This document shows positions 4,976 through 31,253 of a DNA stretch of 31,253 nucleotides, in pieces; position 1 is the first letter of the stretch; every line of letters begins with the position of its first letter. The position numbers and the translations under genes were made by a program. This DNA is from a virus. The stretch covers positions 145,711 to 176,963 of IMG/VR virus record IMGVR_UViG_2919361683_000002; one strand, 5' to 3'. Under the pieces are notes generated by a model. That model searched no databases. It saw only the letters and a list, made by a program, of their open reading frames with translations, and was not told where the DNA came from.

Positions 4976-4995
4976 ACGAACAGGAGAGTAACTAG

Positions 4996-5964
4996 ATGAC
5001 ATTAAAAGCTGTAAATTGGAACAGAGAAGACGATGGGTTTACTCAGACATTTTGGAAGCAGAATATTGAACAATTTTGGACGGATGATGAGATTCCGCTA
5101 TCCGATGACAAGATGAGCTGGGTCGATTTAATGCCGACTGAACAAGACGTATATAAAAGGGTATTGGGTGGTTTGACGTTACTTGATACTCTACAGGGAG
5201 GGGTAGGGATGCCCCAAATTTTAGAGCAAGTCGAAGGACTCCAACGAAAAGCAGTATTTGGTTTTATGGGTATGATGGAGCAAATCCATGCCAAATCATA
5301 CAGCAGCATTTTTACCACATTGGCTACTAATGAAGAAATTGATGAAATTTTTGAATGGGTGGAACAAAATAAACATCTTCAACAAAAGGCTAAAACAATA
5401 AAGCAATACTACATTAATATTAGAACCAAAAGAGATTTTTATATGGCAATGGCTGCTTCTGTTCTTTTGGAAAGCTATTTGTTTTACAGTGGATTCTTCT
5501 ATCCTCTGTACTTAGCTGGACAGGGTAAATTAACAGCCAGTGGAGAAATCATTGATCTTATTTTGCGTGACGAAGCCATTCACGGTCTATACACAGGTTT
5601 AATCGCTCAAGAAGTGTACGAATCAATGAACAAACGTGACAAGGATCGAGTAAGGGAGGAAGTGCTTGATCTCGTTGCTGAACTATACAAAAATGAAGCG
5701 GAATATACTGACGAGTTATATGCTGTTATTGGTCTTGAAGAGGAAGTTAAAAAGTATGTACGTTATAATGCGAATCGTGCCTTGCAGAATCTAGGCTTTG
5801 ATAATTACTTTCCAGTAGAAGATATTAATCCAATTGTACAGAATGGTATCAGTACGAATACAAAGCAGCATGACTTCTTTTCGAAAAAAGGGAATGGCTA
5901 TGTCAGAACAACAAATATTGAAAGAATGACAGACGCAGATTTCAAGTTTGATTTTAATAAGTAG
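4996..5964 (+). CDS. nrdF: Class Ib ribonucleotide reductase beta subunit
   Basis: AVNWN, LTLLDTLQ, MEQIHAKSYS, LESYLFYSGF, RDEAIHG, HDFFS..GNGY; RBS AGGAG. Confidence 0.96.
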   Translation: MTLKAVNWNREDDGFTQTFWKQNIEQFWTDDEIPLSDDKMSWVDLMPTEQDVYKRVLGGLTLLDTLQGGVGMPQILEQVEGLQRKAVFGFMGMMEQIHAKSYSSIFTTLATNEEIDEIFEWVEQNKHLQQKAKTIKQYYINIRTKRDFYMAMAASVLLESYLFYSGFFYPLYLAGQGKLTASGEIIDLILRDEAIHGLYTGLIAQEVYESMNKRDKDRVREEVLDLVAELYKNEAEYTDELYAVIGLEEEVKKYVRYNANRALQNLGFDNYFPVEDINPIVQNGISTNTKQHDFFSKKGNGYVRTTNIERMTDADFKFDFNK

Positions 5965-14634: not shown

Positions 14635-15369
14635 ATCAGAACATTAGCAGTTAGTGATCCGCATGGATGTAATGACGAATTTAATTCATTATTGAAAAAA
14701 GTAAAGTACAATCCTTCTCATGACAAACTCATTCTACTTGGAGATTATGTTGATCGAGGACAAAAGAGTAGACAGATGGTTGAACAAGTAATGCAGCTTC
14801 ATAATGAATGGGGTGTAATTGCTCTTAAGGGAAATCATGACGATATGTTTGTGGCTGCAATAAATAATGATATTGAAGAATTAGATGCCCAATGGCTTAA
14901 TAATGGTGGATTTCAAACTATAGAGAGTTATTGTGGGATTAGTTTTTTTGAAGAAGGATTCGAATGGGAGCAATACATAAAAGCAAAAGAGTTCATTAGG
15001 AAGCACTATCAGAACCACATTGATTTCTTGGGGTCACTGCCTTTGTATTATGAAACAGAAAGTCACATATTTGTTCACGCTGGAGTTAATCCATTTTATG
15101 AAGACTGGCGAAATCAGCCTGAGAGCGACTTCATTTGGATTAGAGATATATTCTTTAACAACAAAACAGGCTTAAATAAAACTGTTGTTTTTGGTCATAC
15201 ACCCTGTATCCATTTGCACGAATCTGAGGACATTTGGTTTGATCCTACGGGTGATAAGATCGCCATTGATGGAGCCTGTGCATATGGATTACAAATGAAC
15301 CTGCTTGAAATTACTGAAGAAGGAACATACATAGAAAATTGTGTGCGTAGAGGCGAAATACATGATTAA
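14635..15369 (+). CDS. Ser/Thr protein phosphatase-like metallophosphoesterase (PphA/lambda-phosphatase type)
   Basis: SDPHG, LGDYVDRG, KGNHD, FVHAG, FGHTP, IDGAC. The first motif lies upstream of the track start and requires an ATC (14635) or ATA (14629) start. Confidence 0.85.
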   Translation: MRTLAVSDPHGCNDEFNSLLKKVKYNPSHDKLILLGDYVDRGQKSRQMVEQVMQLHNEWGVIALKGNHDDMFVAAINNDIEELDAQWLNNGGFQTIESYCGISFFEEGFEWEQYIKAKEFIRKHYQNHIDFLGSLPLYYETESHIFVHAGVNPFYEDWRNQPESDFIWIRDIFFNNKTGLNKTVVFGHTPCIHLHESEDIWFDPTGDKIAIDGACAYGLQMNLLEITEEGTYIENCVRRGEIHD

Positions 15370-16018
15370 CAAGAGTCTAAATTATAAAAGAGATCCTAGC
15401 TTGAACAATGAAGAGACGATTAAAGAGGCAAAGCTAACAAACAATAAAGAACTTAGGGATAAGATTATAAATAATAATATTCCATTTGTTAAAAGCCTAG
15501 CTGACCGTTGGTATAAACGAGGAGTCCCAGAAGAGTTTGATGATCTAGTGGGTATGGGAATGGTAGCACTAATGAAGGCTTACAATACATATGACACGAA
15601 CAAGAATATTAAATTTACTTCATATCTTGGAAAAGTAGTATGGAAAGAATTTATGGCACATTCCAGATATAAAAGCATGAAATGCCGTAGCAAGTACTCC
15701 AGTATTAGCTTCAACGAAACACTTCATAAATCAAAAGGCACAGACGAAGAAAAGCTACTTGCTGAAGTTATTTCAAATGATAGTCACCTAGATTATCTGA
15801 CAGTAGAGGATGAAATGTTCAATACGCATTTAGTTGAACAAATGGATACATTGTTGGCGAAGAAGGAGAGAATCGTTGCTGACAAGTACTTTTTCGAAGG
15901 CAAAAGCATATCGGAAATAGGAGTTGAACTTGGCGTGTCACGTCAGGCAGCGCATCAAGCTTTTCAAAGAACAATAAAACGACTGAAACCAATCTATACT
16001 AATTGGGAAGTGGTTTAA
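15362..16018 (+). CDS. Phage-encoded sigma-70-family alternative sigma factor
   Basis: Region 2 (NNIPFVKSLA...DDLVGMGMVALMKAYNTYD..KNIKFTSY) and region 4 HTH (SISEIGVELGVSRQAAHQ); ATG 15362. Confidence 0.88.
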   Translation: MINKSLNYKRDPSLNNEETIKEAKLTNNKELRDKIINNNIPFVKSLADRWYKRGVPEEFDDLVGMGMVALMKAYNTYDTNKNIKFTSYLGKVVWKEFMAHSRYKSMKCRSKYSSISFNETLHKSKGTDEEKLLAEVISNDSHLDYLTVEDEMFNTHLVEQMDTLLAKKERIVADKYFFEGKSISEIGVELGVSRQAAHQAFQRTIKRLKPIYTNWEVV

Positions 16019-18814: not shown

Positions 18815-18874
18815 ATGTATTACATTGTATGACACTGATGGTCACTATCATACTTTGATACTCATTGTATTTGG
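18815..18874. repeat. Degenerate 10-bp-period repeats, candidate parC centromere/operator
   Basis: ATGTATTACA TTGTATGACA CTGATGGTCA CTATCATACT TTGATACTCA TTGTATTTGG between the promoter and the parM RBS. Confidence 0.55.
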
Positions 18875-18884
18875 AGGTAATATC

Positions 18885-19850
18885 ATGGCTTTAAATGTAG
18901 TGAAAAATTTAAGCGTGATTGATCTTGGGTTCAGCTATACCAAGGGAAAGACGGGCAATATAATGTACCTTCAGCCCTCAATCTCTGGCGATGTTCAACC
19001 AATGTTCGAAGAAAACATTAAACCAAATGATTTTTTCTATAATGAAGAATTATTCGTGGGGAATCTTGCACTAAGGCACAGTGAGATTAAATATTTCACG
19101 CTAAAAAATAATAAGAGTGAAGCGATGACTTCCGATGTCTTATTGAAAACTGGTTTAGGATATTTAAACAAAAACAATCCATTTAATATGGTAACCGGAT
19201 TGCCTGTTTTATTTTACTTTAATCAAAAAAACGATATGGAAAAGATGTTGGACAGAATTAACACAGAAAATGCTTATAGTCTCAAAAAAGGCAGGGGAAA
19301 TTATTCGGAGGTTAAACTCTCTATAAATAAATATAAACTTGTTCCACAGGGATATGGCATAGCAATGGATTATCTACTAGATAGTAAAGGAAAGATTCAA
19401 AAAGTACATATCGCAAATAAGAAGATATTGGTGGTTGATTTAGGATTCTACACTCTAAATTTTTTGGGACTAGATAGATTAGAAATCATGAAAGAGTCAA
19501 CAAGCTTATTGCTGGGAGTAGAAAAAGCATATCAGTTATTGCGTAAGTACCTAATGAATACTATAGGTAAGGCTCCAGCTATTTATGAACTGGACAAGCA
19601 TGTGATAAGTGGAATATATGAAGGTAGAAATATAAAACCTTTAATAGCAAAAGCGTTTAGGTCATTAGCGATCCAAATTCAAAATGAAGTTGAAGGGTTA
19701 AACATAGATTTTGATCATTATTTAATTGGTGGAGGTGCAGCACATCAGATTTTTAACATGCTTGATTTTCACAATAAGATACTTTTCGATCAGCTTGCAC
19801 AAATAAGAGGGTATGAAAAAATTGGAGTTAGAGCATGGGGAAGAAATTGA
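18885..19850 (+). CDS. ParM/StbA-family actin-like ATPase
   Basis: IDLGFSYTK, VTGLP, PQG, VDLGFYT and IGGGA actin-fold motifs; ATG 18885 behind GGAGG. Confidence 0.9.
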   Translation: MALNVVKNLSVIDLGFSYTKGKTGNIMYLQPSISGDVQPMFEENIKPNDFFYNEELFVGNLALRHSEIKYFTLKNNKSEAMTSDVLLKTGLGYLNKNNPFNMVTGLPVLFYFNQKNDMEKMLDRINTENAYSLKKGRGNYSEVKLSINKYKLVPQGYGIAMDYLLDSKGKIQKVHIANKKILVVDLGFYTLNFLGLDRLEIMKESTSLLLGVEKAYQLLRKYLMNTIGKAPAIYELDKHVISGIYEGRNIKPLIAKAFRSLAIQIQNEVEGLNIDFDHYLIGGGAAHQIFNMLDFHNKILFDQLAQIRGYEKIGVRAWGRN

Positions 19851-20116
19851 TTAGTGCAAGACTCAGAAACGGAAAAGACGATGATCTCAAAAAGGCACTG
19901 AGTAAACTTCCTGTATATTACGATGAGAGCGACATCGTAAGAGAAGCGCTAAGACAGTTTTTATTCGGACACAAGGGAAGAAAACCTAAAATATTGGGGA
20001 GCAAAGTTGCAATTGATGATGAAGATGTCATGGACACTAACATATTATTAGAAGAAGATGATTCTATTTCACAATCAGATCTTGATAAAAGTTTGGATGA
20101 TTTTATCGGGATTTAG
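19835..20116 (+). CDS. Ribbon-helix-helix DNA-binding protein with acidic tail (ParR-like adaptor)
   Basis: N-terminal strand ISARL followed by two helices ending SDIVREALR; overlaps the parM 3' end. Confidence 0.75.
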   Translation: MGKKLISARLRNGKDDDLKKALSKLPVYYDESDIVREALRQFLFGHKGRKPKILGSKVAIDDEDVMDTNILLEEDDSISQSDLDKSLDDFIGI

Positions 20117-20134
20117 TAGACCTTGGTCTACTAA
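20113..20134. repeat. Inverted repeat TTAGTAGACC-TT-GGTCTACTAA
   Basis: Perfect 10-bp arms overlapping the stop of the ParR-like gene. Confidence 0.7.
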
Positions 20135-20166
20135 TACATAAAAAAATATTTAATAAGGAGTATTTA

Positions 20167-20694
20167 ATGAGTACAAATTACAATGTATATATGTTTTTGA
20201 ATTCAAATTCTGAAGTAATCTATATTGGAAAGACAAAGCAAATCATTGAGAGAATGGAAGCTCAACATTTTACTAAGTCGGGTCATTGCCCAACGTCCTG
20301 TTACTTGGAGACATCAGAAATATGGCATGCAAATACAAAAAGTGAATCAGAAATGGCTATTTATGAAATATATTTAATAAACAAATATAAGCCTAAATAT
20401 AATAAATCACTTTTATATAGAGACGAAGATAACTCTGAGAATCACCTTTTGCCAGATTTAAGTTGGAGTAAATACAAGAAAGAAATTTTAATTGAAACTT
20501 CAAAAAAGGAAACAAAAAAATCAAAAGAAGTTGCGGCTAAGGCAAGACTAAGACCGGGAAAAGATGACGATCTAATTGAAGCATGGAACAATATTCCTGC
20601 ACACAATGATAAATCCGATGTAGTTAGAGAGGCGTTACGGTTATTATTCTTCGGCAAAGCAAATCCTTCTGACATTGATCAAAGCATTTCATAG
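20167..20694 (+). CDS. GIY-YIG nuclease domain fused to a C-terminal ParR-like RHH domain
   Basis: VY...IYIGKT...R...H...E...PKYN pattern; C-terminal ARLRPGKDDDL...SDVVREALR is paralogous to 19835-20116. Confidence 0.8.
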   Translation: MSTNYNVYMFLNSNSEVIYIGKTKQIIERMEAQHFTKSGHCPTSCYLETSEIWHANTKSESEMAIYEIYLINKYKPKYNKSLLYRDEDNSENHLLPDLSWSKYKKEILIETSKKETKKSKEVAAKARLRPGKDDDLIEAWNNIPAHNDKSDVVREALRLLFFGKANPSDIDQSIS

Positions 20695-20905
20695 AAGAAT
20701 CAAAACAGAATCTATAAAATAATCGCGGGGAAGGTAATAGAATATTTAAAGAAGTGAATAGTTCCATTTTAAAAGTGCACTTCGATCTACAATGCACAAT
20801 TTAAGGGAAGTCACAAGGATTAAAGTAAATTAAAAGTTGAATATCTGAAGTTCTTAGTGAATAAGTGTTATGTTAATGGCGTTAAATATTTGAACAAACA
20901 TACCT

Positions 20906-20935
20906 GCATGTTGTAGACCATATTAGGCATATACT
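20906..20935 (+). promoter_or_regulatory. Candidate mother-cell (sigmaE/sigmaK-type) promoter of phage spoVK
   Basis: GCATG-17 nt-CATATACT resembles the sigmaE consensus ATa-N16-18-CATAcaaT. Confidence 0.5.
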
Positions 20936-20957
20936 GTCACAACGAGAGGTGATTACT

Positions 20958-21932
20958 GTGGATGAAAGCTCTAGAAGGATTACTGTTAATGAATCAAGAA
21001 TTAATGTTGTCTTTAAAAGTCAAGAGGCTTATGAAACAATTTCGGAGCAAAATGAAGAAGTTCCATTAACCAGTAATCATTACGAATCCGCAGCAGACAT
21101 ATTTAAGGATTTAGACGACATGATTGGACTTGAAAAGGTAAAAGAACTTGTGTACGAAATTTATGCATTGATACAGGTACAAAAACTTAGAAGTGAAGAA
21201 GGTCTTAAAAGTAGTAATCAGGTATACCATATGATATTCAAAGGGAATCCCGGTACAGGGAAGACGACAGTGGCAAGAATAGCTTCTAAATTGCTAAACA
21301 GAATGGGTATCCTTAGTAAAGGTCATCTAATTGAAGTAGAGCGAGCAGACTTAGTTGGAGAATACATTGGTCACACCGCACAAAAAACACGAGATCTTGT
21401 TAAGAAGGCTATGGGAGGTATTCTTTTTATTGATGAAGCCTACAGTTTGGCTAGAGGAGGAGATAAAGATTTTGGAAAGGAAGCTATAGACTGTCTTGTA
21501 AAAGTCATGGAGGATAGAAGCGATGATTTAATAATTATCCTTGCTGGATATCCAGATGAGATGGGGATGTTTCTTAGAACAAATACAGGTCTTCCATCCC
21601 GGTTTCCAATACAAATAGATTTTCAGGATTACACAACAGATGAACTAATGTTAATTGCAGTAAAGATGGCATATGAAAAAGACTACAACATTACCTCTGA
21701 TGCACTGATAAAGCTAAGAGAAATAATCCAGATTGAGAAAGACTCAAGAAGTAATTTTAGTAATGCACGTTATGTTCGTAATGTGATTGAAAAAGCGATT
21801 CGACACCAAGCTGTCAGAATAATGAGTAGACGTGTGAAGATTTCTAAGCAAAATTTAATGGATATTTTGCCACGAGATATATCAAATTCAAATGTTGAAA
21901 TGAATAAAAGAGAATCTATCATATTGCCATAA
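20958..21932 (+). CDS. spoVK: Phage-borne full-length SpoVK-like AAA+ ATPase (CbbX/SpoVK family)
   Basis: HMIFKGNPGTGKTT Walker A, ERADLVGEYIGHTA, LFIDEAYSL Walker B, GLPSRF, FSNARYVRN. Clearly homologous to the host remnant at 29447-29854. Start GTG 20958 behind GAGAGG (track 20949). Confidence 0.9.
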   Translation: MDESSRRITVNESRINVVFKSQEAYETISEQNEEVPLTSNHYESAADIFKDLDDMIGLEKVKELVYEIYALIQVQKLRSEEGLKSSNQVYHMIFKGNPGTGKTTVARIASKLLNRMGILSKGHLIEVERADLVGEYIGHTAQKTRDLVKKAMGGILFIDEAYSLARGGDKDFGKEAIDCLVKVMEDRSDDLIIILAGYPDEMGMFLRTNTGLPSRFPIQIDFQDYTTDELMLIAVKMAYEKDYNITSDALIKLREIIQIEKDSRSNFSNARYVRNVIEKAIRHQAVRIMSRRVKISKQNLMDILPRDISNSNVEMNKRESIILP

Positions 21933-21949
21933 ATTAAATTGTATTTGTC

Positions 21950-22007
21950 CATAAAGAACAATCATACTTAATTAACTTAGCTAGAAATCCATCGATTGTT
22001 CTTTATG
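21950..22007. repeat. 14-bp perfect inverted repeat with 30-nt loop downstream of phage spoVK
   Basis: CATAAAGAACAATC ... GATTGTTCTTTATG. Confidence 0.7.
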
Positions 22008-22064
22008 AAGCCTCATAAATATTTAAGGGGGTGAGAGGTGCAAAGTATTCATATTAGATTTTAT

Positions 22065-22080
22065 TAAAATCAATATTTTA
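22065..22080. repeat. Palindromic junction site 8 (TAAAA-TCAATA-TTTTA)
   Basis: Directly upstream of the RBS of 22101-22490. Confidence 0.75.
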
Positions 22081-22100
22081 TAAAGAAGGGCGATGCCAAT

Positions 22101-22490
22101 TTGAAATTTAGTGATATTTCCCCCGATGGAATTCCATTTGAGAAATTAGATGTTGAAATGAAAGAAATCATAAAAATACTTAATTTGGATTATGGAATAA
22201 AAACAAAGTACTGCTGCTTTGGACACGAAGATAGGGCTATCATGTACATTATGTTTCATGAAGAAATGAATGATCTAATAGAAGAACTGGCTTTCAAGAT
22301 ATCGGAGCACACAGAAGGAAAAGATTTTGGATTTCATTGCTGGATAAGAAAAGGTAAAAAGGTAGAAAAAAATTGGATCTGTAAAACTAATGGAGCTAAA
22401 AGCCAGAATGAGCGCTACCGAATTCTTCAAAAATTTATTGAAGTTTTGAAGAATAGTGTCGTGATCGATGTAAAGGAGTGTGTTGATTAA
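22101..22490 (+). CDS. Hypothetical phage protein (LN..GIKT..CCFGH motif)
   Basis: TTG start behind GAAGGG; overlaps the dnaE start. Confidence 0.7.
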   Translation: MKFSDISPDGIPFEKLDVEMKEIIKILNLDYGIKTKYCCFGHEDRAIMYIMFHEEMNDLIEELAFKISEHTEGKDFGFHCWIRKGKKVEKNWICKTNGAKSQNERYRILQKFIEVLKNSVVIDVKECVD

Positions 22491-25400
22491 TTTGTGTGAA
22501 AAGTGTAATTCGATTTTGCTCCATAATCATGTCGATAGGGGTTCAAACTTAAGGCTTAGAGATACAACAAATCGAGTGGAAGAGCTGATACAAACAGCTT
22601 ATGATATGGGACATAAGGGAGTTGCTATAACAGATCATGAATCCATCTCAGCTCATGTTAAAGCAATTCAAGCAACAGAAAAACTAAAGCAAGAAGGCAA
22701 GATACATAAAGAATTTAAGCTAATATTAGGTAATGAAATTTATTTGGTGGAGAGCCTTGCAGAAGTAAGAGATAACTATAAATCTGGAGTTACTAAATTT
22801 CCGCATTTTTTGTTATTAGCTAAAGATGAAATTGGTCATGAACAGCTTCGCTATATGAGCTCAAAGGCTTGGTCTGATTCATTTTTCACAGGCCCAATGT
22901 TAAGAACACCAACAGAACGCAGCTTTTTACGATCAGTTATAAAAGAAAATCCAGGACATTTGATTGCTTCGTCTGCATGTTTAGGTTCACCTCATTGCAT
23001 ATACCTTTTGGAAATGAAATCACATTTAGAAAATAACAATAGAGAAGAAGCAAAAAAAAGCTATAAAAAAGTATGTGATTTTACAAATTGGTGTATCGAA
23101 GTATTCGGAAAAGAAAATTTTTATTTAGAGCTGCAACCTGCCTACAGTGAGGAACAGATTTATTGCAACAAGCAATTGCTTCTATTGGCTGATAAATTTG
23201 ATCTTAAATACATAGTAACAACAGATAGTCATTATCTGCGTCCTGAAGATCGAATTGTACATAAAGCATTTCTGAATGCAAAAGAAGGAGAACGGGAAGT
23301 TGATTCATTTTATGAGGCAACCTTTGTACAAAATCACGAGGAGATAAATGCTCGCTTAAGTTATCTAAGTCACGATGTGATAATGAAAGCATTAAACAAT
23401 ACAATAGAAGTCGGTAACAAGATTAAAGATTATACTATTTTAAACCCAACGATTATCCCTAAAATCGATCTTCCAAACTTCGAAATTAGTGGATTATTTC
23501 GTTCAATTTATTCTCAGTATGAATATATAGATAAAATGGCTCACTCGAATAATAGTCAAGATAGATACATAGTAAAATTAATAGAGGATGGATTTAGAGA
23601 GTATCTTCCATACAACACCTACTCGAAAGAAAAATTGCATGAAGTAGCCGCTAGAATTAACACTGAATTAGGTGAACTATGGAAGATATCTGAGAAAATG
23701 AATCAATCAGTAGCAAGTTACTACATTACAGTTCGAGAAATTGTAAATGTTATTTGGGATGATGAGTGTGGGAATAGTTTGGTTGGCCCATCTCGTGGCT
23801 CTTCTGCTGGGTACTTAATTTGCTTCCTCTTGGGAATTACTCAAGTCAATCCTTTAGAGTATGGCATCGAAATGCCGCATTGGAGACACTTGACAGCAGA
23901 GAGACCCGAATTTCCAGATATTGATATCGATACTGAAGCAGCAAAACGGAATCAGATCTTCAGACAACTAAAGAAGTACTTTGGTGAAAACCAAGTTCTA
24001 CAGGTTTGCACATTTGGTACAGAAGCATCAAAATCTGCTGTACAAACAGCAGCTAGAGGGTTAGGGATTGATAATGATACGGCTATGTATGTATCTGGAC
24101 TAATTCCTTTTGAAAGAGGCAGCAGTTGGACGTTATCAGATTGTGTTACTGGAAATGAAGAAAAAGAACGTAAGCCAGTTAAAGAGTTTGTTACTGAAAT
24201 AAATAAATTTGATAATTGGCTCAATGTGGCAATGAAAATTGAGGGACTAGTAAACAAAAGAAGTATTCATGCTAGTGGTGTAATAGTTTTCAATGAAGAA
24301 TATTATAAAACTAATGCTATGATGACTGCTCCCAATGGTACTCATGTAACGCAACTTAGCCTAGAAGACTGTGAAGCCGTATCAAATATGAAATTTGACT
24401 TGTTGACAATTGAGGGTTTGGATAAGATCCGTGTAGCAATGGATTTTTTAATTAAAGAAAATCTTATGGAATGGCAAGGGTCAATTCGCAAAACTTATAA
24501 CAAGTACCTGCATCCCAATATAATTGACATAAAGAGCCAAGAAATATATGACCTAATTGGTTCGGATAGTATAACTGATCTTTTTCAGTTTTCCACAGAA
24601 ATAGGAATACAAACCGTAAAAAGAACTAAACCATCTAATCTAATCGAACTAGCTGCTGCAAACTCACTTATGCGTCTTATGGGTGACCATAACAGCGAAA
24701 CACCAATTGATAGCTTTATCAGATTTAAAAAGGATATTAATGAATGGTACAAGGAATTGCACGAGAATTTTTTAAACGAAGAAGAAATAGAGACCATGAA
24801 GAATCATTTACTTGCATTGAATGGAGTAGCAGACACACAAGAGTCTATAATGCTTCTTTCAATGGATAAAAAAGTGGCAGGATTTACAATTCAAGAAGCA
24901 AATAAGCTCAGGAAAATTATTGCAAAGAAAAAAGCAAATGAAATCGAAGACATAAAGAATAAATTTTATGAAAAAGGATTGGAGTTGAAAAATAGAAAAG
25001 AGATCCTAGATTACGTCTGGAATAAACAAATAGTTAGACAGTTAGGATATTCTTTCTCTGTATTACATACCTTGGCTTATTCAATTATCGCGTTGCAGGA
25101 AGCTAACTTGAATAATATTTACGATCCTATTTATTGGAGAACAGCTTGTTTAACTGTAAACTCTGCTTCCATTCACGATGAAGATGGAGATGAAGATACT
25201 AAAACACAATCCACAAACTACGGGAAAATTGCTTCTGCAATTGGGAACATGCAGAGCCGTGGCGTAAAAATAGGTCTTCCTGATATAAGCAAAGCCGATT
25301 ATGGATTTATTCCCGATACAGAGTTTAATCAAATTGTTTTTGGACTAAAAGGAATCAATGGCATTGGTGATGATGTTGTTCAGAACATTATTAAACATAG

Positions 25401-26430
25401 ACCATATAAATCTTTTGATGATTTTATCGAGAGGATGTTTAATACCTCAATCATCAAAAAATCCCAAGTAATTCAGTTGATTAAAGCAGGTTGCTTTGAA
25501 TCTTTTGGTAATCGTTTAGAAATTATGAAGCAATTTATACATAAGATTTTTACACCTAAACAAAAAGTTACTATGCAGAACTTTAATGCTCTTATTGAAA
25601 ATAATTTGATTCCAGAAGATATGTCCCAATATAAGAGACTGTTCAACTTTAGAAAGTACGTTATCAAAAATGTCTATGGTAAAGAAGGTAAAGAGAAGCT
25701 TTACTTGCTCGATAAAATTTCCACTCCTTTTTATTATGAGTACTTTTCAGGAGAAGCTATAAAAGATTATCATAATAATTTCCCAATCATAGCAGAACGA
25801 ACATTCAAAAAAGAATACGATAAAAAGATGGAAGGAATAAAGAGTTGGTTAACTGAGGATACTACTCTGTCTCTTTTAAATTCGAAGTTATATAAGAATG
25901 AGTGGAACAGTTTAGCATCTGGAACATTGAGTAAATGGGAGATGGACTCTTTATCATTTTACTATACAGAACATGAACTCCAAAACATTGACACATTCAA
26001 ATACGGAATTGTTAACTTTTTTGAATTACCTGAAGAACCAATAGTTGTTGAAATGATTCAATATAGAAATGGATCAACCAGACCTAAATTCAAATTGGAT
26101 TTTATTGCTGGGACTGTATTAGATAAAGACAAAAATAAAAATACAGTAACGATCCTTACAACAACAGGTGTAGTTACTGCAAAATATTATGATGGTGCTT
26201 TTGCACATTACAATAAACAAATATCAAAACTGAAACCAGATGGGACTAAAGAAATTATTGAAAAATCATGGTTTACGCGTGGCAATAAGTTGATCCTGTT
26301 TGGATATCGTAGAGGTTCACAGTTTAGACCGTACAACTATAAAGACTCAAGAGTTAAACATACCACTATGTTTATTGATGAAATTAGAGAAGATGGTTCG
26401 GTAAAAGTAACTACTGAGCGAAAAAGCTAA
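22480..26430 (+). CDS. dnaE: Phage DNA polymerase III alpha subunit (C-family)
   Basis: PHP domain (HNH, AITDH, TTDSHY), GPSRGSSAG, catalytic PDIDID, SIHASG, KFDLL, GYSFS..H..AY, FGLKGINGIG. Confidence 0.95.
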   Translation: MLINLCEKCNSILLHNHVDRGSNLRLRDTTNRVEELIQTAYDMGHKGVAITDHESISAHVKAIQATEKLKQEGKIHKEFKLILGNEIYLVESLAEVRDNYKSGVTKFPHFLLLAKDEIGHEQLRYMSSKAWSDSFFTGPMLRTPTERSFLRSVIKENPGHLIASSACLGSPHCIYLLEMKSHLENNNREEAKKSYKKVCDFTNWCIEVFGKENFYLELQPAYSEEQIYCNKQLLLLADKFDLKYIVTTDSHYLRPEDRIVHKAFLNAKEGEREVDSFYEATFVQNHEEINARLSYLSHDVIMKALNNTIEVGNKIKDYTILNPTIIPKIDLPNFEISGLFRSIYSQYEYIDKMAHSNNSQDRYIVKLIEDGFREYLPYNTYSKEKLHEVAARINTELGELWKISEKMNQSVASYYITVREIVNVIWDDECGNSLVGPSRGSSAGYLICFLLGITQVNPLEYGIEMPHWRHLTAERPEFPDIDIDTEAAKRNQIFRQLKKYFGENQVLQVCTFGTEASKSAVQTAARGLGIDNDTAMYVSGLIPFERGSSWTLSDCVTGNEEKERKPVKEFVTEINKFDNWLNVAMKIEGLVNKRSIHASGVIVFNEEYYKTNAMMTAPNGTHVTQLSLEDCEAVSNMKFDLLTIEGLDKIRVAMDFLIKENLMEWQGSIRKTYNKYLHPNIIDIKSQEIYDLIGSDSITDLFQFSTEIGIQTVKRTKPSNLIELAAANSLMRLMGDHNSETPIDSFIRFKKDINEWYKELHENFLNEEEIETMKNHLLALNGVADTQESIMLLSMDKKVAGFTIQEANKLRKIIAKKKANEIEDIKNKFYEKGLELKNRKEILDYVWNKQIVRQLGYSFSVLHTLAYSIIALQEANLNNIYDPIYWRTACLTVNSASIHDEDGDEDTKTQSTNYGKIASAIGNMQSRGVKIGLPDISKADYGFIPDTEFNQIVFGLKGINGIGDDVVQNIIKHRPYKSFDDFIERMFNTSIIKKSQVIQLIKAGCFESFGNRLEIMKQFIHKIFTPKQKVTMQNFNALIENNLIPEDMSQYKRLFNFRKYVIKNVYGKEGKEKLYLLDKISTPFYYEYFSGEAIKDYHNNFPIIAERTFKKEYDKKMEGIKSWLTEDTTLSLLNSKLYKNEWNSLASGTLSKWEMDSLSFYYTEHELQNIDTFKYGIVNFFELPEEPIVVEMIQYRNGSTRPKFKLDFIAGTVLDKDKNKNTVTILTTTGVVTAKYYDGAFAHYNKQISKLKPDGTKEIIEKSWFTRGNKLILFGYRRGSQFRPYNYKDSRVKHTTMFIDEIREDGSVKVTTERKS

Positions 26431-26441
26431 AGGAGAATAAC

Positions 26442-26570
26442 ATGATGGACAAGATGAGCAAACATAAGATTGAAAGTATTTTGAATCGAAAGCTTAGCGA
26501 GAAAGAGTATAAAGAGATTGTATCTATCGTACTGAACAAGCTTCTAGAGGAAAGCAATAATGAACAATAA
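26442..26570 (+). CDS. Small hypothetical protein (42 aa), not in ORF track
   Basis: AAGGAG RBS right after the dnaE stop; overlaps the next start. Confidence 0.55.
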   Translation: MMDKMSKHKIESILNRKLSEKEYKEIVSIVLNKLLEESNNEQ

Positions 26571-26787
26571 TCTCGACAGATTTGAAACTCAATATCAGAA
26601 GTATAGATTTCCTGATACACAAGATAAGGAGGTGAATAGGTTTTCAACTTGTGCGGGATGTAATGAAGATATCTTAGTTGGAGATGAAATATTGATCTTG
26701 TTTGATGGTTTGACTGTTCACGATGACTACGGTTGTCTAAAGAAAGCAAATGGAGCAAAAAGAATTATTACTGGAGAGGAATGGTAA
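26560..26787 (+). CDS. Small putative zinc-binding protein
   Basis: CAGC...H...C pattern; RBS GAGG. Confidence 0.6.
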   Translation: MNNNLDRFETQYQKYRFPDTQDKEVNRFSTCAGCNEDILVGDEILILFDGLTVHDDYGCLKKANGAKRIITGEEW

Positions 26788-26788
26788 T

Positions 26789-26965
26789 TTGAATTTAGTT
26801 GGTCATAATATTCAACTTGTTAAAGAATTGAAGATACATACATTAAAAAGACTTGAGATGTACAATAAATATGGATTTATAAAGGAAGAGAAGTATGAGG
26901 AACTAGTAAAGCTAGAAACAGATTATTTGGATGATCGATTGAAGATGATGGAGAGCTTGCTATGA
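26789..26965 (+). CDS. Small hypothetical protein
   Basis: TTG 26789 behind GAGGA; ATGA overlap with recU. Confidence 0.55.
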   Translation: MNLVGHNIQLVKELKIHTLKRLEMYNKYGFIKEEKYEELVKLETDYLDDRLKMMESLL

Positions 26966-27558
26966 GTAAAAATGAAGGGAAGCTCTTTGAGGGAGACTTT
27001 CAAGCGTCTGCTGGATCAACTCAGAAGATATTTTTTACCAGAATTAAAGATACTTTTATTCCAGCGGATTTAAGAAACAGAATTAGAGTTACGAAAAATG
27101 ATTATGACTGCATGATGTTTTCTGAGAAGTATCTTTTTACTTTGGAGCTTAAGTCCACAAAACAAAAATCGGTCAGTTTTGATGAAAGTGTAATTAAAAA
27201 GCATCAGATTGATAAATTAAAAGAGGCCAGTGAGTACGACAATGTTATTAGTGGTTTTATTATAAATTTTAGAGAACCAGACAATAGGGTCTTCTTTGTA
27301 CATATCAAGGATTTTGTTAAGTATCAATTTATTGCTCAAAATCAGCTTAGTCACACATATAAGAACAGAGTGAATAAAAGCAGCATACCTATAGGTATAT
27401 GTGAAGAGATAGGGCTAGAAATCAATGGATTTAAAAAAAGAAGCAAGTGGCATTACCACTTAAACGATTTTGTAAAAAATGCAATAAATACATATGGTTT
27501 TAGCAAACAATTTCATGATAAAAGTAGTATTTTACAGAGAGTAGATAACTATTTATAA
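26962..27558 (+). CDS. recU: RecU-like Holliday junction resolvase
   Basis: N.GK.FE, YD, ELKST, HQI..L PD-(D/E)XK pattern of the RecU family. Confidence 0.8.
   Translation: MSKNEGKLFEGDFQASAGSTQKIFFTRIKDTFIPADLRNRIRVTKNDYDCMMFSEKYLFTLELKSTKQKSVSFDESVIKKHQIDKLKEASEYDNVISGFIINFREPDNRVFFVHIKDFVKYQFIAQNQLSHTYKNRVNKSSIPIGICEEIGLEINGFKKRSKWHYHLNDFVKNAINTYGFSKQFHDKSSILQRVDNYL
27519..27534. repeat. Palindromic junction site 9 (TAAAA-GTAGTA-TTTTA)
   Basis: Within the last 13 codons of the recU-like gene. Confidence 0.65.
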
Positions 27559-27594
27559 GCCTTCTTTCAACATAATTAGAGAGGAGGGTGCAGA

Positions 27595-27747
27595 TTGAAA
27601 AGAAGCAACATAAATAGTTTTGAGGTTGTAATACATATTGCTAATGAAAAAGAAGCCAAACCGACAGAAGAATTAAATAATGAATTTATAATTTGGCTGG
27701 AAAATACAATGAAAAAGTATTCTCATTTAGTGCCAAAAGATATATAA
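27595..27747 (+). CDS. Small protein (50 aa, MKRSNINSFEVVIHIANE...), candidate recombination directionality factor
   Basis: Strong RBS GAGGAGG with TTG start, immediately upstream of the integrase; function inferred from position only. Confidence 0.55.
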   Translation: MKRSNINSFEVVIHIANEKEAKPTEELNNEFIIWLENTMKKYSHLVPKDI

Positions 27748-27789
27748 TTAATATATAAAAATAATTAAAAAACTATCAGGAGGAACTTT

Positions 27790-29574
27790 ATGCTCAGGAC
27801 TTTAACAGGTTCAGAAAAATTCACCAAAACTGAGCTTGAAGCCTTGGTCGCAAAGATCAAGGCTCTTATTTATGCTCGTGTATCTACCGATGGGCAGGTT
27901 GATAATTATTCAATAGAATCTCAAATTGAAAGATGCATGGATTTAGCCAAACAAAAGGGGATTAAAGAAGAAGAAGTAGTTGTTCTAATAGAAGATGGGG
28001 AATCAGGTGATAACCCCAATCGCCCAATGATCAACTATGTTTTATTCTTGTTGGAGTATGGGATTGGTGATCATGTTATTTTTCTACATCCCAACAGGAT
28101 GAGTCGTTTTCTTCATTTACAAACACAACTGTCAAATCGCATATGGGGTCTTGGCAAAGATTTCTGGTTTGTTGAGTTTGATTTTGACAAATCGAGTCCA
28201 GAATCAATGTTGAACTTCAACATCCAAGGTTCAATTGCCGAATACAACAAAGCAAAGATATTAGCAGATACTAAGCGTGGCAGAATTACAAAGGTTAAAA
28301 ATGGTCAAATACCGGGTTTAAACAGAATTTATGGGTATACCTATGATACTGAATTGGACACACTAGTTGAGAATCCTGTAGAAAAAGAAATTTATTTGAA
28401 GATGGTTGATATGCTTTTACATAAAGATTATAGCTGTTCTAGGATAGCTGAAGAATTATCTTTGCGTAACGTGCCAGCTCCTAAAAAAGACAGATGGTAT
28501 CAAGTTACGATAAGTAGAATATTTAAAAATGAAACCTACACAGGCAATTATTATTTTGGCAAAACCAAAGTAATCCGTAATGCTGATGGAACAAAGAAAC
28601 AAGTTCCACAACCAAGAGAAGAATGGAGACGAATATCTGTACCTGTTTACATTGATATGGAGACATACCATAGAATTCAGAAGAGACTTGATGAACTAAA
28701 TAAGAACAAACCCGGAAGACCCACAGAAGATTACCTGTTACAAGGAATTTGCCGCTGTGGCAGATGTGGGGCAGCAGTATCATCAGGTGTGACTACGAAA
28801 ACTAAAAATAGATTGCTGAAGTATTACGTATGTCAACATAAAACAAAGAAGTCTTATAAAGTAGGAACTGGCGAATCCAATCCAATTTGCAAAGGACGCA
28901 ATTGGAGAGTGGACTATGTAGATAAAATTATTTGGGAATACGTTAAGAATATAATATCCGAGCCAGCAGAATTTTTTGAACGTATAATTAAACAGCAATC
29001 AGAAAACTCAAACTCTGATGAACTGCTTAAACAAAAAAAGAAATTGGATAAGTCCCTACAGGAAAAAGAAGCGTCTCGCGAACGTTATACAGAGATGTAT
29101 GCGGCTGGAATAATCAAATCAATGAAGGATTTAGAAGATAAAGTGTCAGCCGTAGATGAACAGATTAAAGATATAAAAGAGGAATTGCATACAATAGACC
29201 AAAGCTTATCGACTGTGCTTAATAAGAAAAATCACATCGAATTAGTGCAAAAATCGCTAAGATCTTTTAAATATTTGCTTGATAACGATCATATAGATAT
29301 AGAAACAAAAAGAAAAGTGACGCGATTATTTGTGAAAAAAGTTATGCTCAATGAGGATAATAAAATAAATGTTTATTTACATCTAGGATTTATTGATAAC
29401 GCCGAGAAAGAATCCGATAATAAACATATAAATGTAAACAGTCGCCAAGGCCATGGAAGACCAAAAAAATCAATTTATTTTGATCCTCGCAGGGTATTCG
29501 GGAGAAATGGACTTTTTTTTACGGACAAATCCTGGTCTTCCTTCTCGTTTTCCGATTCAACTGGATTTTCCTGA
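27790..29574 (+). CDS. Large serine recombinase (prophage integrase); ORF extends across attR
   Basis: YARVST catalytic motif, SIESQ, ESG, YGY recombinase domain, CRCGRCG...YYVC...C zinc ribbon, coiled coil; RBS AGGAGG. Confidence 0.95.
   Translation: MLRTLTGSEKFTKTELEALVAKIKALIYARVSTDGQVDNYSIESQIERCMDLAKQKGIKEEEVVVLIEDGESGDNPNRPMINYVLFLLEYGIGDHVIFLHPNRMSRFLHLQTQLSNRIWGLGKDFWFVEFDFDKSSPESMLNFNIQGSIAEYNKAKILADTKRGRITKVKNGQIPGLNRIYGYTYDTELDTLVENPVEKEIYLKMVDMLLHKDYSCSRIAEELSLRNVPAPKKDRWYQVTISRIFKNETYTGNYYFGKTKVIRNADGTKKQVPQPREEWRRISVPVYIDMETYHRIQKRLDELNKNKPGRPTEDYLLQGICRCGRCGAAVSSGVTTKTKNRLLKYYVCQHKTKKSYKVGTGESNPICKGRNWRVDYVDKIIWEYVKNIISEPAEFFERIIKQQSENSNSDELLKQKKKLDKSLQEKEASRERYTEMYAAGIIKSMKDLEDKVSAVDEQIKDIKEELHTIDQSLSTVLNKKNHIELVQKSLRSFKYLLDNDHIDIETKRKVTRLFVKKVMLNEDNKINVYLHLGFIDNAEKESDNKHINVNSRQGHGRPKKSIYFDPRRVFGRNGLFFTDKSWSSFSFSDSTGFS
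29420..29475. other. attR; probable crossover near GCC-AA-GGC (29444-29451)
   Basis: Homology to SpoVK (K-A-M-E-D) begins at 29447 and is absent upstream; short inverted repeat around AA 29447-29448. Confidence 0.7.
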
Positions 29575-29854
29575 CTACACTGTGGATCAACTCATTCAAA
29601 TTTCGGAGATGATGGCTAAGGAACGGGATTATATTCTCATGCCTCAGTCTATACTCAAAATGAAGGAGCATTTGCTAAATGAGCGGAATGACAGTCTCCA
29701 TGCATTTAGTAATGCACGTTATGTTCGTAATGTGATCGAAAAAGCGATTCGGCACCAAGCCGTCAGGCTGCTTAATCAGTACAGGAGTGGGCAACCCGGC
29801 AAGCAGGAATTGATGACGTTGCGACCAGAGGATTTGAAAATGGACAAAAGATAG
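29447..29854 (+). pseudogene. spoVK: 3' portion of host spoVK split by prophage integration
   Basis: KAMEDQKNQFILILAGY...GLPSRF...FSNARYVRN; lacks Walker A/B; sits upstream of hflX as in Bacillales. Confidence 0.9.
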
Positions 29855-29893
29855 GCGATAATAGGAATCTGAATCACATCGAATTGTATGACA

Positions 29894-29935
29894 TCGAACG
29901 AGGGCCGGCCTGACATCAGGTCGGTTTCTGTTCGA
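29894..29935. other. Long imperfect hairpin between spoVK and hflX
   Basis: TCGAAC-GAGGGCCGGCCTGA / TCAGGTCGGTTTCT-GTTCGA arms. Confidence 0.5.
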
Positions 29936-29966
29936 GAGTTGACATGAAAATAAAGGAGCAAACAAT

Positions 29967-31253
29967 ATGGCGAACTCCACTCATGATACACAAACCGAAA
30001 TGCAGGATAAGGCGGTACTGGTCAGTCTAATTACGGATGAAGTCAAACGATCTGGCATCAATACGGAATATTCGTTGGAAGAACTGGTGAAGCTGGCTGA
30101 AACAGCGGGAGTTGAAGTGCTGAGCGTCCTCACACAGAATAGGGAATCCAAGGACTCAAAATGGTTTATTGGCAAAGGAAAAGTAGATGAATTGCGTGCA
30201 GTTGCTGAAGAATTGGGAGCGAATACAGCTATTTTTGATCAGGAACTATCGGGAGCTCAAGTACGAAATCTTGAAGAGAGCCTGGATCTCAAAATAATTG
30301 ACCGGACACAGTTAATTCTGGACATTTTTGCTCAGCGTGCAAAGACACGGGAAGGTATTATCCAGGTTGAACTGGCGCAGTTGTCATACTTACTCCCTCG
30401 ACTGTCTGGACACGGTAAAAATCTTTCGCGGCTCGGTGGCGGAATCGGAACACGTGGTCCTGGTGAAAGCAAGCTAGAGACGGACCGTCGTCACATTCGT
30501 GACCGAATCAGTGATCTGAAACGCCAACTTGAGGAAGTGACGCGTCATCGGTATTTACACAGGGAGCGTAGACAAAAGGCCGGCATCGTCCAGGTGGCAC
30601 TCGTTGGCTATACAAATGCCGGCAAATCAACACTGCTGAAGCAACTGACAGCTGCCGATGTATATATTGAGAACCAACTATTTGCGACGCTTGATCCTAC
30701 CTCTAGAACAATGGAACTGCCGAGTGGCAAAGAAATTATTCTCACAGATACAGTAGGATTTATTCAAAATCTGCCTCATGATTTGGTTGCCTCTTTCCGG
30801 GCCACTTTGGAGGAGGCCAATGAGGCTCATCTCATTTTACATGTCGTGGACGCCTCCTCAGACATGCGTGACGAACAAATGAAAGTTGTAGAGTCAATCC
30901 TGCAACAGCTTGGGGCTGCGGACAAGCCTCAGATCGTATTGTTTAACAAAAAAGATGCTTGCACCCCTGAGCAATTGGAAATGCTCCCTTCTGGGGAAGG
31001 CTATTTGAAAATCAGTGCTTTTGATGAAGCAGATTTGCTACGCATTCGCGAACTGGTTCAGGAGCATCTGAGCGGTGACACACTGAGATTTCGTATTCCT
31101 GCGGAACGTGGGGATTTAACATCGGTGCTTTATCGAATTGGAGATGTACTGCTGACAGAGTATGATGGCAATGATGTCATTTATGAGGTAGAAATTCAAA
31201 GAGGAGAATACGAAAAGTATGGTCATGCGCTTAGTGAGTTCACAGAAAGTTAA
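29967..31253 (+). CDS. hflX: Ribosome-splitting GTPase HflX (host)
   Basis: IGTRGPGESKLE, GYTNAGKST (G1), LFATLD (G2), DTVGF (G3), NKKD (G4); RBS AAGGAG. Confidence 0.97.
   Translation: MANSTHDTQTEMQDKAVLVSLITDEVKRSGINTEYSLEELVKLAETAGVEVLSVLTQNRESKDSKWFIGKGKVDELRAVAEELGANTAIFDQELSGAQVRNLEESLDLKIIDRTQLILDIFAQRAKTREGIIQVELAQLSYLLPRLSGHGKNLSRLGGGIGTRGPGESKLETDRRHIRDRISDLKRQLEEVTRHRYLHRERRQKAGIVQVALVGYTNAGKSTLLKQLTAADVYIENQLFATLDPTSRTMELPSGKEIILTDTVGFIQNLPHDLVASFRATLEEANEAHLILHVVDASSDMRDEQMKVVESILQQLGAADKPQIVLFNKKDACTPEQLEMLPSGEGYLKISAFDEADLLRIRELVQEHLSGDTLRFRIPAERGDLTSVLYRIGDVLLTEYDGNDVIYEVEIQRGEYEKYGHALSEFTES

Follow-up and report, generated by a model that had tools for sequence, protein, structure and literature searches.

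A spoVK-splitting SPbeta-like prophage of Paenibacillus carries its own spoVK, whose lineage appears to have replaced the host gene in several species

The SPbeta-like phage Goe14 integrates into spoVK of Bacillus subtilis at an AAG lysine codon, and the phage attachment site (attP) is located towards the 3' end of the integrase coding sequence, from which 131 residues are lost on integration; no equivalent of sprB was seen (Kohm et al., bioRxiv 10.1101/2021.11.22.469490). SPbeta itself interrupts spsM and the skin element interrupts sigK, and in both cases the gene is restored by excision of the SprA/SprB type that is timed by a mother-cell promoter (Abe et al. 2014, PMC4191935). Here we describe a Paenibacillus prophage which splits spoVK of its host and carries a full-length spoVK of its own. 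It is seen in a stretch of 31,253 nt, in the following called the window, which comprises positions 145,711-176,963 and therefore the right end of the 176,963-bp provirus record IMGVR_UViG_2919361683_000002. Integrators of the tRNA-gene type carry a short duplicate of the 3' part of their target in attP, which is fused in frame at the junction. Like these, the phage in the window would preserve the function of its target gene. Unlike these, it has a complete xenologue with 57-62% identity and its own promoter, located 7.5 kb from the right attachment site (attR) or, in the related prophage of P. medicaginis, just inside the left one (attL).

The locus may be a case of "break and replace", in which the spoVK-splitting phage lineage itself supplies a working substitute, sporulation comes to depend on the phage gene, and after decay of the prophage this allele and its promoter stay behind as the sole spoVK. 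Such displacements would have happened several times across the Paenibacillaceae, at least twice in the genus of the window and probably again in a sister group. The comparative evidence tips slightly in favour of this complete course of events.

The host spoVK is represented in the window by a 3' remnant of 408 nt (29447-29854, + strand; TIGR02881 positions 137-261), which holds the last 135 amino acid codons and the stop codon. It contains an open reading frame (ORF) of 133 aa (29453-29854), which matches the C-terminal half of SpoVK only (TIGR02881 positions 137-261; AAA_lid_6). Upstream lies the gene of a large serine integrase in its truncated prophage form (27790-29574, + strand; Pfam Resolvase, Recombinase and Zn_ribbon_recom domains), the last 42 codons of which run into host DNA in a frame other than that of spoVK. 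The junction reads ...GCCAAGGCCATGGAAGACC... and includes the 10-bp attR core AAGGCCATGG (29447-29456, + strand) with the crossover at the lysine codon AAG. The exact joined bacterial attachment site (attB) is present in the intact spoVK of G037, an uninterrupted sibling genome whose hflX is 99.8% identical to that of the window; the remnant differs from this gene by 15 mismatches in 408 nt. Proteins named P. polymyxa group with G037 SpoVK in the tree, and together with the hflX match this places the host in the P. polymyxa group.

The attL site and the 5' half of spoVK were not found in the provirus record, which covers 175.2 kb to the left of attR and has no step in guanine-cytosine (GC) content at its left end. 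The record stops short of attL, and attL was therefore taken from the relatives G035, G001, G002, G060 and G068. The complete chromosome of G035 contains a near-identical prophage with a recombinase 96% identical to that of the window, and shows the order of spoVK 5' fragment (4,399,470-4,400,051), phage SpoVK (99% identity; 4,566,714-4,567,694), recombinase and 3' remnant. Its attachment cores are about 174 kb apart, the spoVK 5' part comprises 576 nt and attL bears the same core AAGGCCATGG. In the four other Paenibacillus lysogens attL and attR share 3 to 10 bp, each starting at the same lysine codon, so that each of the five Paenibacillus junction pairs places the crossover at lysine, encoded by AAG or AAA. 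Public sequencing runs were analyzed as Logan contigs, in which rare molecules, such as excision products, are not visible. Contigs of three lysogen runs end exactly at the attR core. On the intact locus of G037, the contigs of runs X1, X2 and X9 stop at the core and continue into phage DNA, and none of them bridges it, run X23 yielding no contig at this locus; such contigs drop rare variants. A recombinase scan of species-representative genomes revealed three relevant loci, in Paenibacillus sp. PvR008 (83% identity), P. medicaginis (72%) and Alicyclobacillus tolerans (41%), at each of which a 3' remnant of spoVK comes next after the recombinase, with hflX further downstream. A fourth locus, in a Bacteroidetes metagenome-assembled genome, has only 22% identity and is irrelevant.

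The integrase is 41.9% identical to that of Goe14 over 99% of its length. Immediately on the prophage side of attL in G035 lies a cut-off integrase tail of 128 aa, in which the frame is continued and which shares 36% identity with residues 561-679 of the Goe14 integrase, whose annotated attachment site is at codon 559 of 693. Thus, attP lies within the 3' coding region of the integrase gene and integration truncates the gene, as seen at the junctions of the window, G035, G001, G002, G060 and G068. A partial duplicate borne by attP and fused in frame was not found at these junctions; at attL the host frame stops after two phage-encoded codons. In G035 (L053, ~4990-5010) the host 5' fragment with 192 codons and both Walker motifs stays open for two codons beyond the crossover, so that lysogens could still produce a truncated SpoVK under the native promoter.

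The window shares several properties with Goe14 and the prophage of B. subtilis BS155, all being SPbeta-like, inserted into spoVK at an AAG lysine codon and equipped with a long serine integrase that is truncated by integration. For Goe14 this codon is the one given by Kohm et al. Insertion into spoVK by this integrase family is thus already published and the window is a new member of a published kind. It differs from Goe14 in its host genus and in the shared core, which has 10 bp in the window and 3 bp in the report on Goe14. It also differs in the spare gene, since Goe14, SPR, SPbetaL2, BUCT082 and BUCT083 have no SpoVK homologue; of these, Goe14 is the one whose spoVK target is taken from a published report. 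As with SPbeta and skin, a sporulation gene of the mother cell is interrupted by a prophage that encodes a large serine recombinase. These two are described as lacking a copy of their target, whereas the prophage of the window carries a full spare with its own promoter. Insertion inside a sporulation gene and a recombinase adjoining the attachment site are features of sporulation-gene-intervening elements; the size of more than 120 kb, the YorL-type polymerase and the serine integrase in a sporulation-related locus are SPbeta-like.

Longer homologues of the integrase (48-53% identity, ORFs of 665-679 aa) occur in G011, G065, G025, G044, G085 and G071 (L099-L104). They were rejected as further spoVK splitters, as their ORFs are unsplit and the host spoVK is intact in all six genomes. 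Where the flanks were read, they are low-GC and phage-like on both sides or save for one end of a 20-kb stretch. No spare spoVK was found in G011, G065, G025, G044 and G085, and the phage-type copy of G071 is located elsewhere, in a prophage at ytfJ. Four of the six stretches contain a second serine recombinase match (among them G065, G025 and G044; weak in G025).

The phage-borne spoVK (20958-21932, + strand) is located 7.5 kb from attR inside the prophage and encodes an AAA+ ATPase of 324 aa with the domains PF00004 (1.5e-17) and PF17866 (AAA_lid_6; 1.8e-17). The GTG codon at 20958 is most likely the start of the gene. It is preceded by the motif GAGGTGAT of a ribosome-binding site, GAGAGGTGAT (20945-20960 including the start, + strand; read from the sequence), and a deposited homologue (P0001) also has 324 aa, consistent with this start. 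Walker A (GNPGTGKT), Walker B (LFIDEAY) and the GLPSRFP segment are the same in phage and host. The protein shares 57-62% of its residues with intact host-type SpoVK in an alignment that spans almost the entire length and takes in part of the N-terminal region; its identity to the host remnant is 54% over 138 aligned positions (E 9e-46). The best NCBIfam model is TIGR02881 (spore_V_K) with 407.7 bits, followed far below by CbbX (268 bits) and EccA (240 bits). The TIGR02881 cut-off of 422.95 was discarded as a discriminator, since native Paenibacillus SpoVK proteins (418.4 and 413.1 bits) and the sole-copy genes at the native locus (394.6-402.1 bits) fall short of it too. Four phage-phage pairs gave ratios of nonsynonymous to synonymous substitutions (dN/dS) of 0.053, 0.041, 0.043 and 0.037 at synonymous divergences (dS) of 1.0-1.5, and the protein is therefore strongly constrained. 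SpoVK homologues were detected in 11 of 50,697 phage records, with 33-45% identity (phage G, Emery, Adler and faecal contigs). The proteins of phage G (gp596, 41%), Brevibacillus phage Emery (36%, named "stage V sporulation protein K") and Mycobacterium phage Adler (36%) are examples; gp596 and the Emery protein belong to the same AAA+ subfamily (SpoVK/CbbX/EccA) and at only 36-41% identity lie outside the Paenibacillus phage-type clade. We know of no link between these genes of phage G and Emery and a split host spoVK. Our literature search, which did not extend to subscription journals, turned up no report of a phage spoVK serving as backup for a split host gene.

An original prediction, made from the window sequence alone, had described the host gene split at about 29447, an intact phage SpoVK with Walker A and B about 7.5 kb inside the prophage and a C-terminal part about half identical to the host remnant. 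All three statements hold, and the codons it quoted around the crossover (GTA AAA GTC ATG GAG GAT in the phage copy, AAG GCC ATG GAA GAC in the host) are as written. Its view that this site was specially recoded and thereby resistant to integration has to be given up. Over the equivalent 50-nt window the phage copy is 64% identical to attB, compared with 56.7% for the whole gene, which is the 58th percentile of all 50-nt windows. Counted over 51 nt, the phage copy has 19 differences to attB and other phage-type genes have 13-23, while host-type genes differ among themselves at 8-12 positions. The site of the phage copy is probably no substrate of the integrase, merely through ordinary divergence.

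For the distribution of both gene types we analyzed 93 genomes of the Paenibacillus genus of the window. In 81 of them there is one full-length host-type match with 56-64% identity to the phage copy. Five genomes have a split spoVK (G001, G002, G035, G060 and G068), and in all five a phage-type copy (66-99%) is located in the prophage. In another five (G046, G049, G057 and G083 with 79% and G017 with 75% identity) a phage-type gene directly upstream of hflX is the sole spoVK. The two remaining genomes, G071 and G012, contain a phage-type copy (74%) in the same module of actin-like protein (ALP), ribbon-helix-helix (RHH) protein, SpoVK and polymerase, with the host spoVK intact elsewhere. Their prophages (L052, 3495-5446 and L061, 3729-5654) end with a different serine recombinase of 495-503 aa that adjoins a Spore_YtfJ (gerW-type) gene or fragment; the phage lineage is thus also found at a second sporulation gene, ytfJ. 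The presence of the gene in these two ytfJ-side prophages makes the phage spoVK a trait of the lineage, not a strict companion of the spoVK-type integrase. In P. medicaginis (G002; L054, 6558-7538) the phage spoVK follows right after the cut-off integrase tail. An association between carrying and targeting spoVK, as expected from the original prediction, is therefore seen in the five split genomes but is not strict, since G071 and G012 carry the gene without splitting and the Bacillus phages and the Alicyclobacillus element have no spare.

The native spoVK locus is marked by hflX (29967-31253 in the window, + strand, running past the window end; Pfam GTP-bdg_N, GTP-bdg_M and MMR_HSR1), which adjoins spoVK, a spoVK remnant or a phage-type copy in 42 of 42 loci yielding a full hflX. 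In the SpoVK tree host-type genes form a clade with a support of 100 and phage-type genes a separate one with a support of 99, in which the copies at the native locus are nested among prophage copies. The hflX tree places the five native-locus carriers inside a species clade with a support of 100, the other members of which are host-type or split. The approximately unbiased (AU) test rejects the monophyly of all native copies in the genus (p 1.6e-64) as well as that of the seven prophage copies (p 1.1e-4), with groups that were chosen once the tree was known. In a larger tree with 122 rows, 70 host-type Paenibacillaceae proteins are united with a support of 95, and the phage-type proteins fall outside them in two clades of 31 and 20 rows. 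This position argues for an old phage lineage and against a recent capture from the P. polymyxa host, so that the "captured" copy proposed originally, for which a phylogeny of phage and host SpoVK had been suggested, is contradicted by an old phage-associated clade outside all sampled host-type Paenibacillaceae SpoVK. Rooting with CbbX involves a very long outgroup branch and does not fix the deep origin of the phage type.

The loci of the five sole-copy genomes bear further marks. Synteny with neighbour species is broken exactly over spoVK and about 180 bp upstream, and the best nucleotide matches inside this part are phage copies (70-74%). In G049, the only genome of the G046 group examined in this respect, the last ~9 host-type codons and the stop codon remain behind the phage-type gene. 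In G017 about 38 decayed codons behind the phage-type gene align to host residues 283-320. The GC content of the native-locus phage-type genes is 0.385-0.437, compared with 0.436-0.507 for the adjacent hflX, while the difference between a host-type spoVK and its hflX does not exceed about 0.05. We infer from these sequence comparisons that the native-locus phage-type copies in the genus are replacements of the host gene. With 18-23 mismatches to attB in 51 positions, the displaced allele may also protect these hosts from reinsertion.

Similar genes were found beyond the genus in a family sample of 401 evenly drawn genomes, of which 374 have a match at E <= 1e-90. In seven genomes outside the genus the sole match is 64-70% identical and aligned from the N-terminus, and all seven genes fall in the phage-type clade. 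The gene is located directly upstream of hflX in G106, G402, G374 and G170, and hflX is 1.8 kb away in G240; in G434 and G400 no hflX was found within the 5.3-kb stretch around the gene. In the hflX tree G106, G402, G374 and G170 belong to one species group with G300, which has a host-type gene; the hflX of G240 was too short and was left out. By these comparisons spoVK was probably replaced in this sister group as well, the opposite direction, from host to phage, being less firmly excluded there. In G374, G170 and G240 (L108, L109 and L106) the phage-type native genes seem to keep an upstream block like that of the host type (TAATAAC, 14 nt, AATAGACT), which hints at a chimeric replacement of the coding part only.

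A two-block promoter of the sigmaE type is predicted upstream of the phage spoVK (GCATGTT, 15 nt, CATATACT; 20906-20935, + strand), in a conserved position about 10 nt upstream of the ribosome-binding site. Across the clade it has the form GCAT(G/T)TT, 14-15 nt, CATATACT. The B. subtilis sigmaE consensus is approximately (G/T)(A/C)ATAnn, 14 nt, CATACAnT, of which we take the predicted promoter to be a good match. Blocks, spacing and position relative to the gene are conserved in 11 of the 12 copies of the window clade (six of seven prophage and five of five native-locus copies), with the copy of P. medicaginis as the exception and that of G017 as a variant (GAATTAT, CATATAAT). The blocks are conserved although synonymous sites are saturated, and the surrounding sequence is not conserved. 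Host-type spoVK has a conserved block of its own, TAATAnn-N14-AATACATT, in 26 of the 33 host-type genes analyzed from the genus. In B. subtilis spoVK is transcribed from sigmaE and sigmaK promoters and expressed in the mother cell (PMC517825). These patterns suggest that the phage spoVK promoter depends on sigmaE. A GC-rich hairpin (GTAGGC TTCG GCCTAC) lies between the upstream ORF and the phage-type spoVK in four relatives. Another hairpin with a 14-bp stem follows the spoVK stop codon in the window (21951-22007, + strand; -27.1 kcal/mol, z -3.0); it has no U-run, the terminator scan made no call there, and it is possibly a terminator or processing site. Sigma-70 and terminator scans of 20100-22600 were uninformative, with seven promoter-like sites against 11.1 expected and no terminator.

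The phage spoVK is present in RNA libraries of two studies, a hint of expression, though not specifically in sporulation; carry-over of DNA is possible. Run X9, from a lysogen, contains a separate contig of 1,166 nt that spans only 20875-22041 with 98% identity, as well as a contig across attR (29372-30400); both spoVK halves break at the core on the intact reference and continue into phage DNA. In the second study (X23) a contig covers 20838-23214 and reaches into the polymerase gene. The gap of X9 over 22155-27781 is unusable as a sign of silent neighbouring genes, as the prophage of this strain may differ there.

Taken together, the following course of events is suggested. An SPbeta-like prophage of about 174 kb inserts via a Goe14-type large serine integrase at a lysine codon inside the host spoVK. 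Its full-length spoVK would be expressed in the mother cell from the predicted sigmaE-like promoter and would supply SpoVK activity, so that the lysogen could sporulate with or without excision of the prophage. Excision may also happen, as complementation and excision are not exclusive. For replacement, the broken host gene would place the phage copy under selection for sporulation and, while the prophage decays, the phage gene and its promoter would stay at the locus. That the phage gene acts as SpoVK in the sporulating lysogen appears probable to us, with the strongest support coming from its lineage, which suffices as the only spoVK in other species. We infer that the phage gene is able to act as SpoVK and has taken the place of the host gene on several occasions. 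The complementation in trans that had been proposed originally is accordingly retained as plausible by comparison (constraint, sporulation-type promoter, lineage as sole spoVK in several species), although without the attributes "captured" and "integration-resistant".

In addition to the late choice of the AU-test groups, several observations weigh against this interpretation. The prophages of G071 and G012 keep spoVK under the same constraint despite an intact host spoVK; complementation is then not the sole selective value of the gene, or the gene is a relic of a recent integrase swap. The copy of P. medicaginis, whose frame is otherwise conserved (dN/dS 0.097 relative to the copy of the window), shows one in-frame TAA at codon 149 and is either a recent pseudogene or carries a sequencing error. 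In A. tolerans (G003; L005, L012 and L015) spoVK is split by an element whose integrase has 41% identity, and the genome has no spare spoVK; a third SpoVK-like match considered as such turned out to be CbbX beside RuBisCO genes. Elements of this kind can evidently be maintained without a spare. The 11 phage records with a SpoVK homologue include none of the five Bacillus phages whose integrases match best (Goe14, SPR, SPbetaL2, BUCT082 and BUCT083). A loose sigmaE-type pattern has one match on both strands of the 177-kb record, which is chance level (0.79 expected from a Markov model), and the promoter argument is therefore one of position and conservation, not of rarity. The X9 contig already begins 31 nt before the predicted -35 block, and those transcripts start elsewhere.

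Some of these observations would be expected if developmental excision rebuilt the host spoVK in the mother cell, as for SPbeta in spsM and skin in sigK, and were the main or only route. The phage spoVK would then be dispensable and serve the phage otherwise, e.g., by tuning spore maturation. The integrase, the attP in its 3' coding region and the lysine-codon crossover match Goe14, which as a viable temperate phage has to excise, and mother-cell excision of SPbeta was shown for SprA/SprB (PMC4191935). The elements in Bacillus and Alicyclobacillus that split spoVK without a spare, the broken spare of P. medicaginis and the retention of the gene in the ytfJ-side sister prophages point in the same direction. 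However, no directionality factor was identified in the prophage, and Kohm et al. saw no sprB equivalent in Goe14. Excision also leaves the sole native phage-type spoVK genes with scars of the old gene and the conserved sporulation-type promoter unexplained, and we consider it unlikely as the main or only route.

Still less probable is a function of the protein as an AAA+ ATPase of the phage life cycle, for instance in replication, assembly or as a remodeller, with the likeness to SpoVK due to shared ancestry and its presence at a split spoVK coincidental. The gene is indeed part of a replication module, between the ALP/RHH pair and DNA polymerase III alpha, SpoVK-like AAA+ proteins exist in unrelated phages (gp596 of phage G, Emery and Adler), and G071 and G012 carry the gene whatever the integration site. 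However, the protein is 57-62% identical to host SpoVK and only 36-43% to those phage proteins, its clade provides the only native-locus spoVK in at least five genomes of the genus and four of the sister group, and the gene has its own sporulation-type promoter and, in four relatives, a preceding hairpin.

That the phage-type gene is instead the vertical spoVK of some Paenibacillaceae, picked up by phages more than once without any replacement in hosts, could account for its position beside hflX in four of five sampled sister-group genomes (G106, G402, G374 and G170) and for protein-search identities that run smoothly from 99% down to 58%, but is highly improbable given genus carriers nested among host-type species, the rejected single clade of native copies, host-type 3' remnants behind phage-type genes, a GC content 0.05-0.13 below that of the adjacent hflX and the host-type gene retained by G300 of the sister group.

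Nearly all genes of the window are located on the + strand, and the phage DNA has a GC content of 0.31-0.36, which steps up to 0.47 beyond ~29.5 kb. From 13.6 kb rightwards the genes encode phosphoesterases, a sigma factor, a ParM-like ALP with a small RHH protein, a GIY-YIG protein, the SpoVK homologue, a 129-aa ORF, DNA polymerase III alpha, a 198-aa protein and the large serine recombinase, followed by the 133-aa C-terminal SpoVK piece and hflX. The phage sigma factor (15341-16018; Sigma70 regions 2 and 4) has only weak best families (SigB/F/G subfamily, WhiG and sporulation SigE; 67-70 bits, far below the cut-offs) and is kept at 49-52% identity in the prophages of G071 and G012. The ParM-like actin (ALP_N) and an overlapping ORF of 93 aa with an RHH-like motif (18825-20116) form a plasmid-style partition pair, which is conserved in sister prophages and located there directly upstream of spoVK. 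In the GIY-YIG protein (20167-20694) the final ~60 residues repeat a motif of the adjoining 93-aa protein (RLR.GKDDDL ... SD.VREALR), and a similar tail is found immediately before the spoVK promoter in G012, G060 and G068.

Downstream of spoVK, the variable 129-aa ORF (22101-22490, + strand) has no Pfam match and is missing from related prophages of runs X3 and X23, the contigs of which skip 22060/22082-22473. The DNA polymerase III alpha (22480-26430, + strand; Pfam PHP, DNA_pol3_alpha, finger and HHH_6) is 55.6% identical to YorL of SPbeta over 99% of its length. The 198-aa protein (26962-27558, + strand) is without Pfam or NCBIfam match and is 68% identical to its counterpart in the syntenic prophage of G071. 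In the related prophage of run X3 the region of this gene (26926-27559) is swapped for 654 other bases.

The interpretation preferred here, in which the phage gene substitutes for the host gene it breaks, accounts for the fact that the sole spoVK genes concerned are named only "AAA family ATPase" by NCBI. It also calls for caution, as spoVK phylogenies in Paenibacillus depart from the species tree, and makes natural attB variants available for the Goe14-type integrase family. Prophages in sporulation genes are thought to be tolerated through timed excision in the mother cell. A working copy carried by the prophage would be a different solution, instead of excision or in addition to it. The comparative record suggests a lasting effect, namely that a core developmental gene was replaced in place by its phage version in several species. 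The host would then depend on a gene of its prophage, and a core gene would have undergone phage-driven xenologous displacement.

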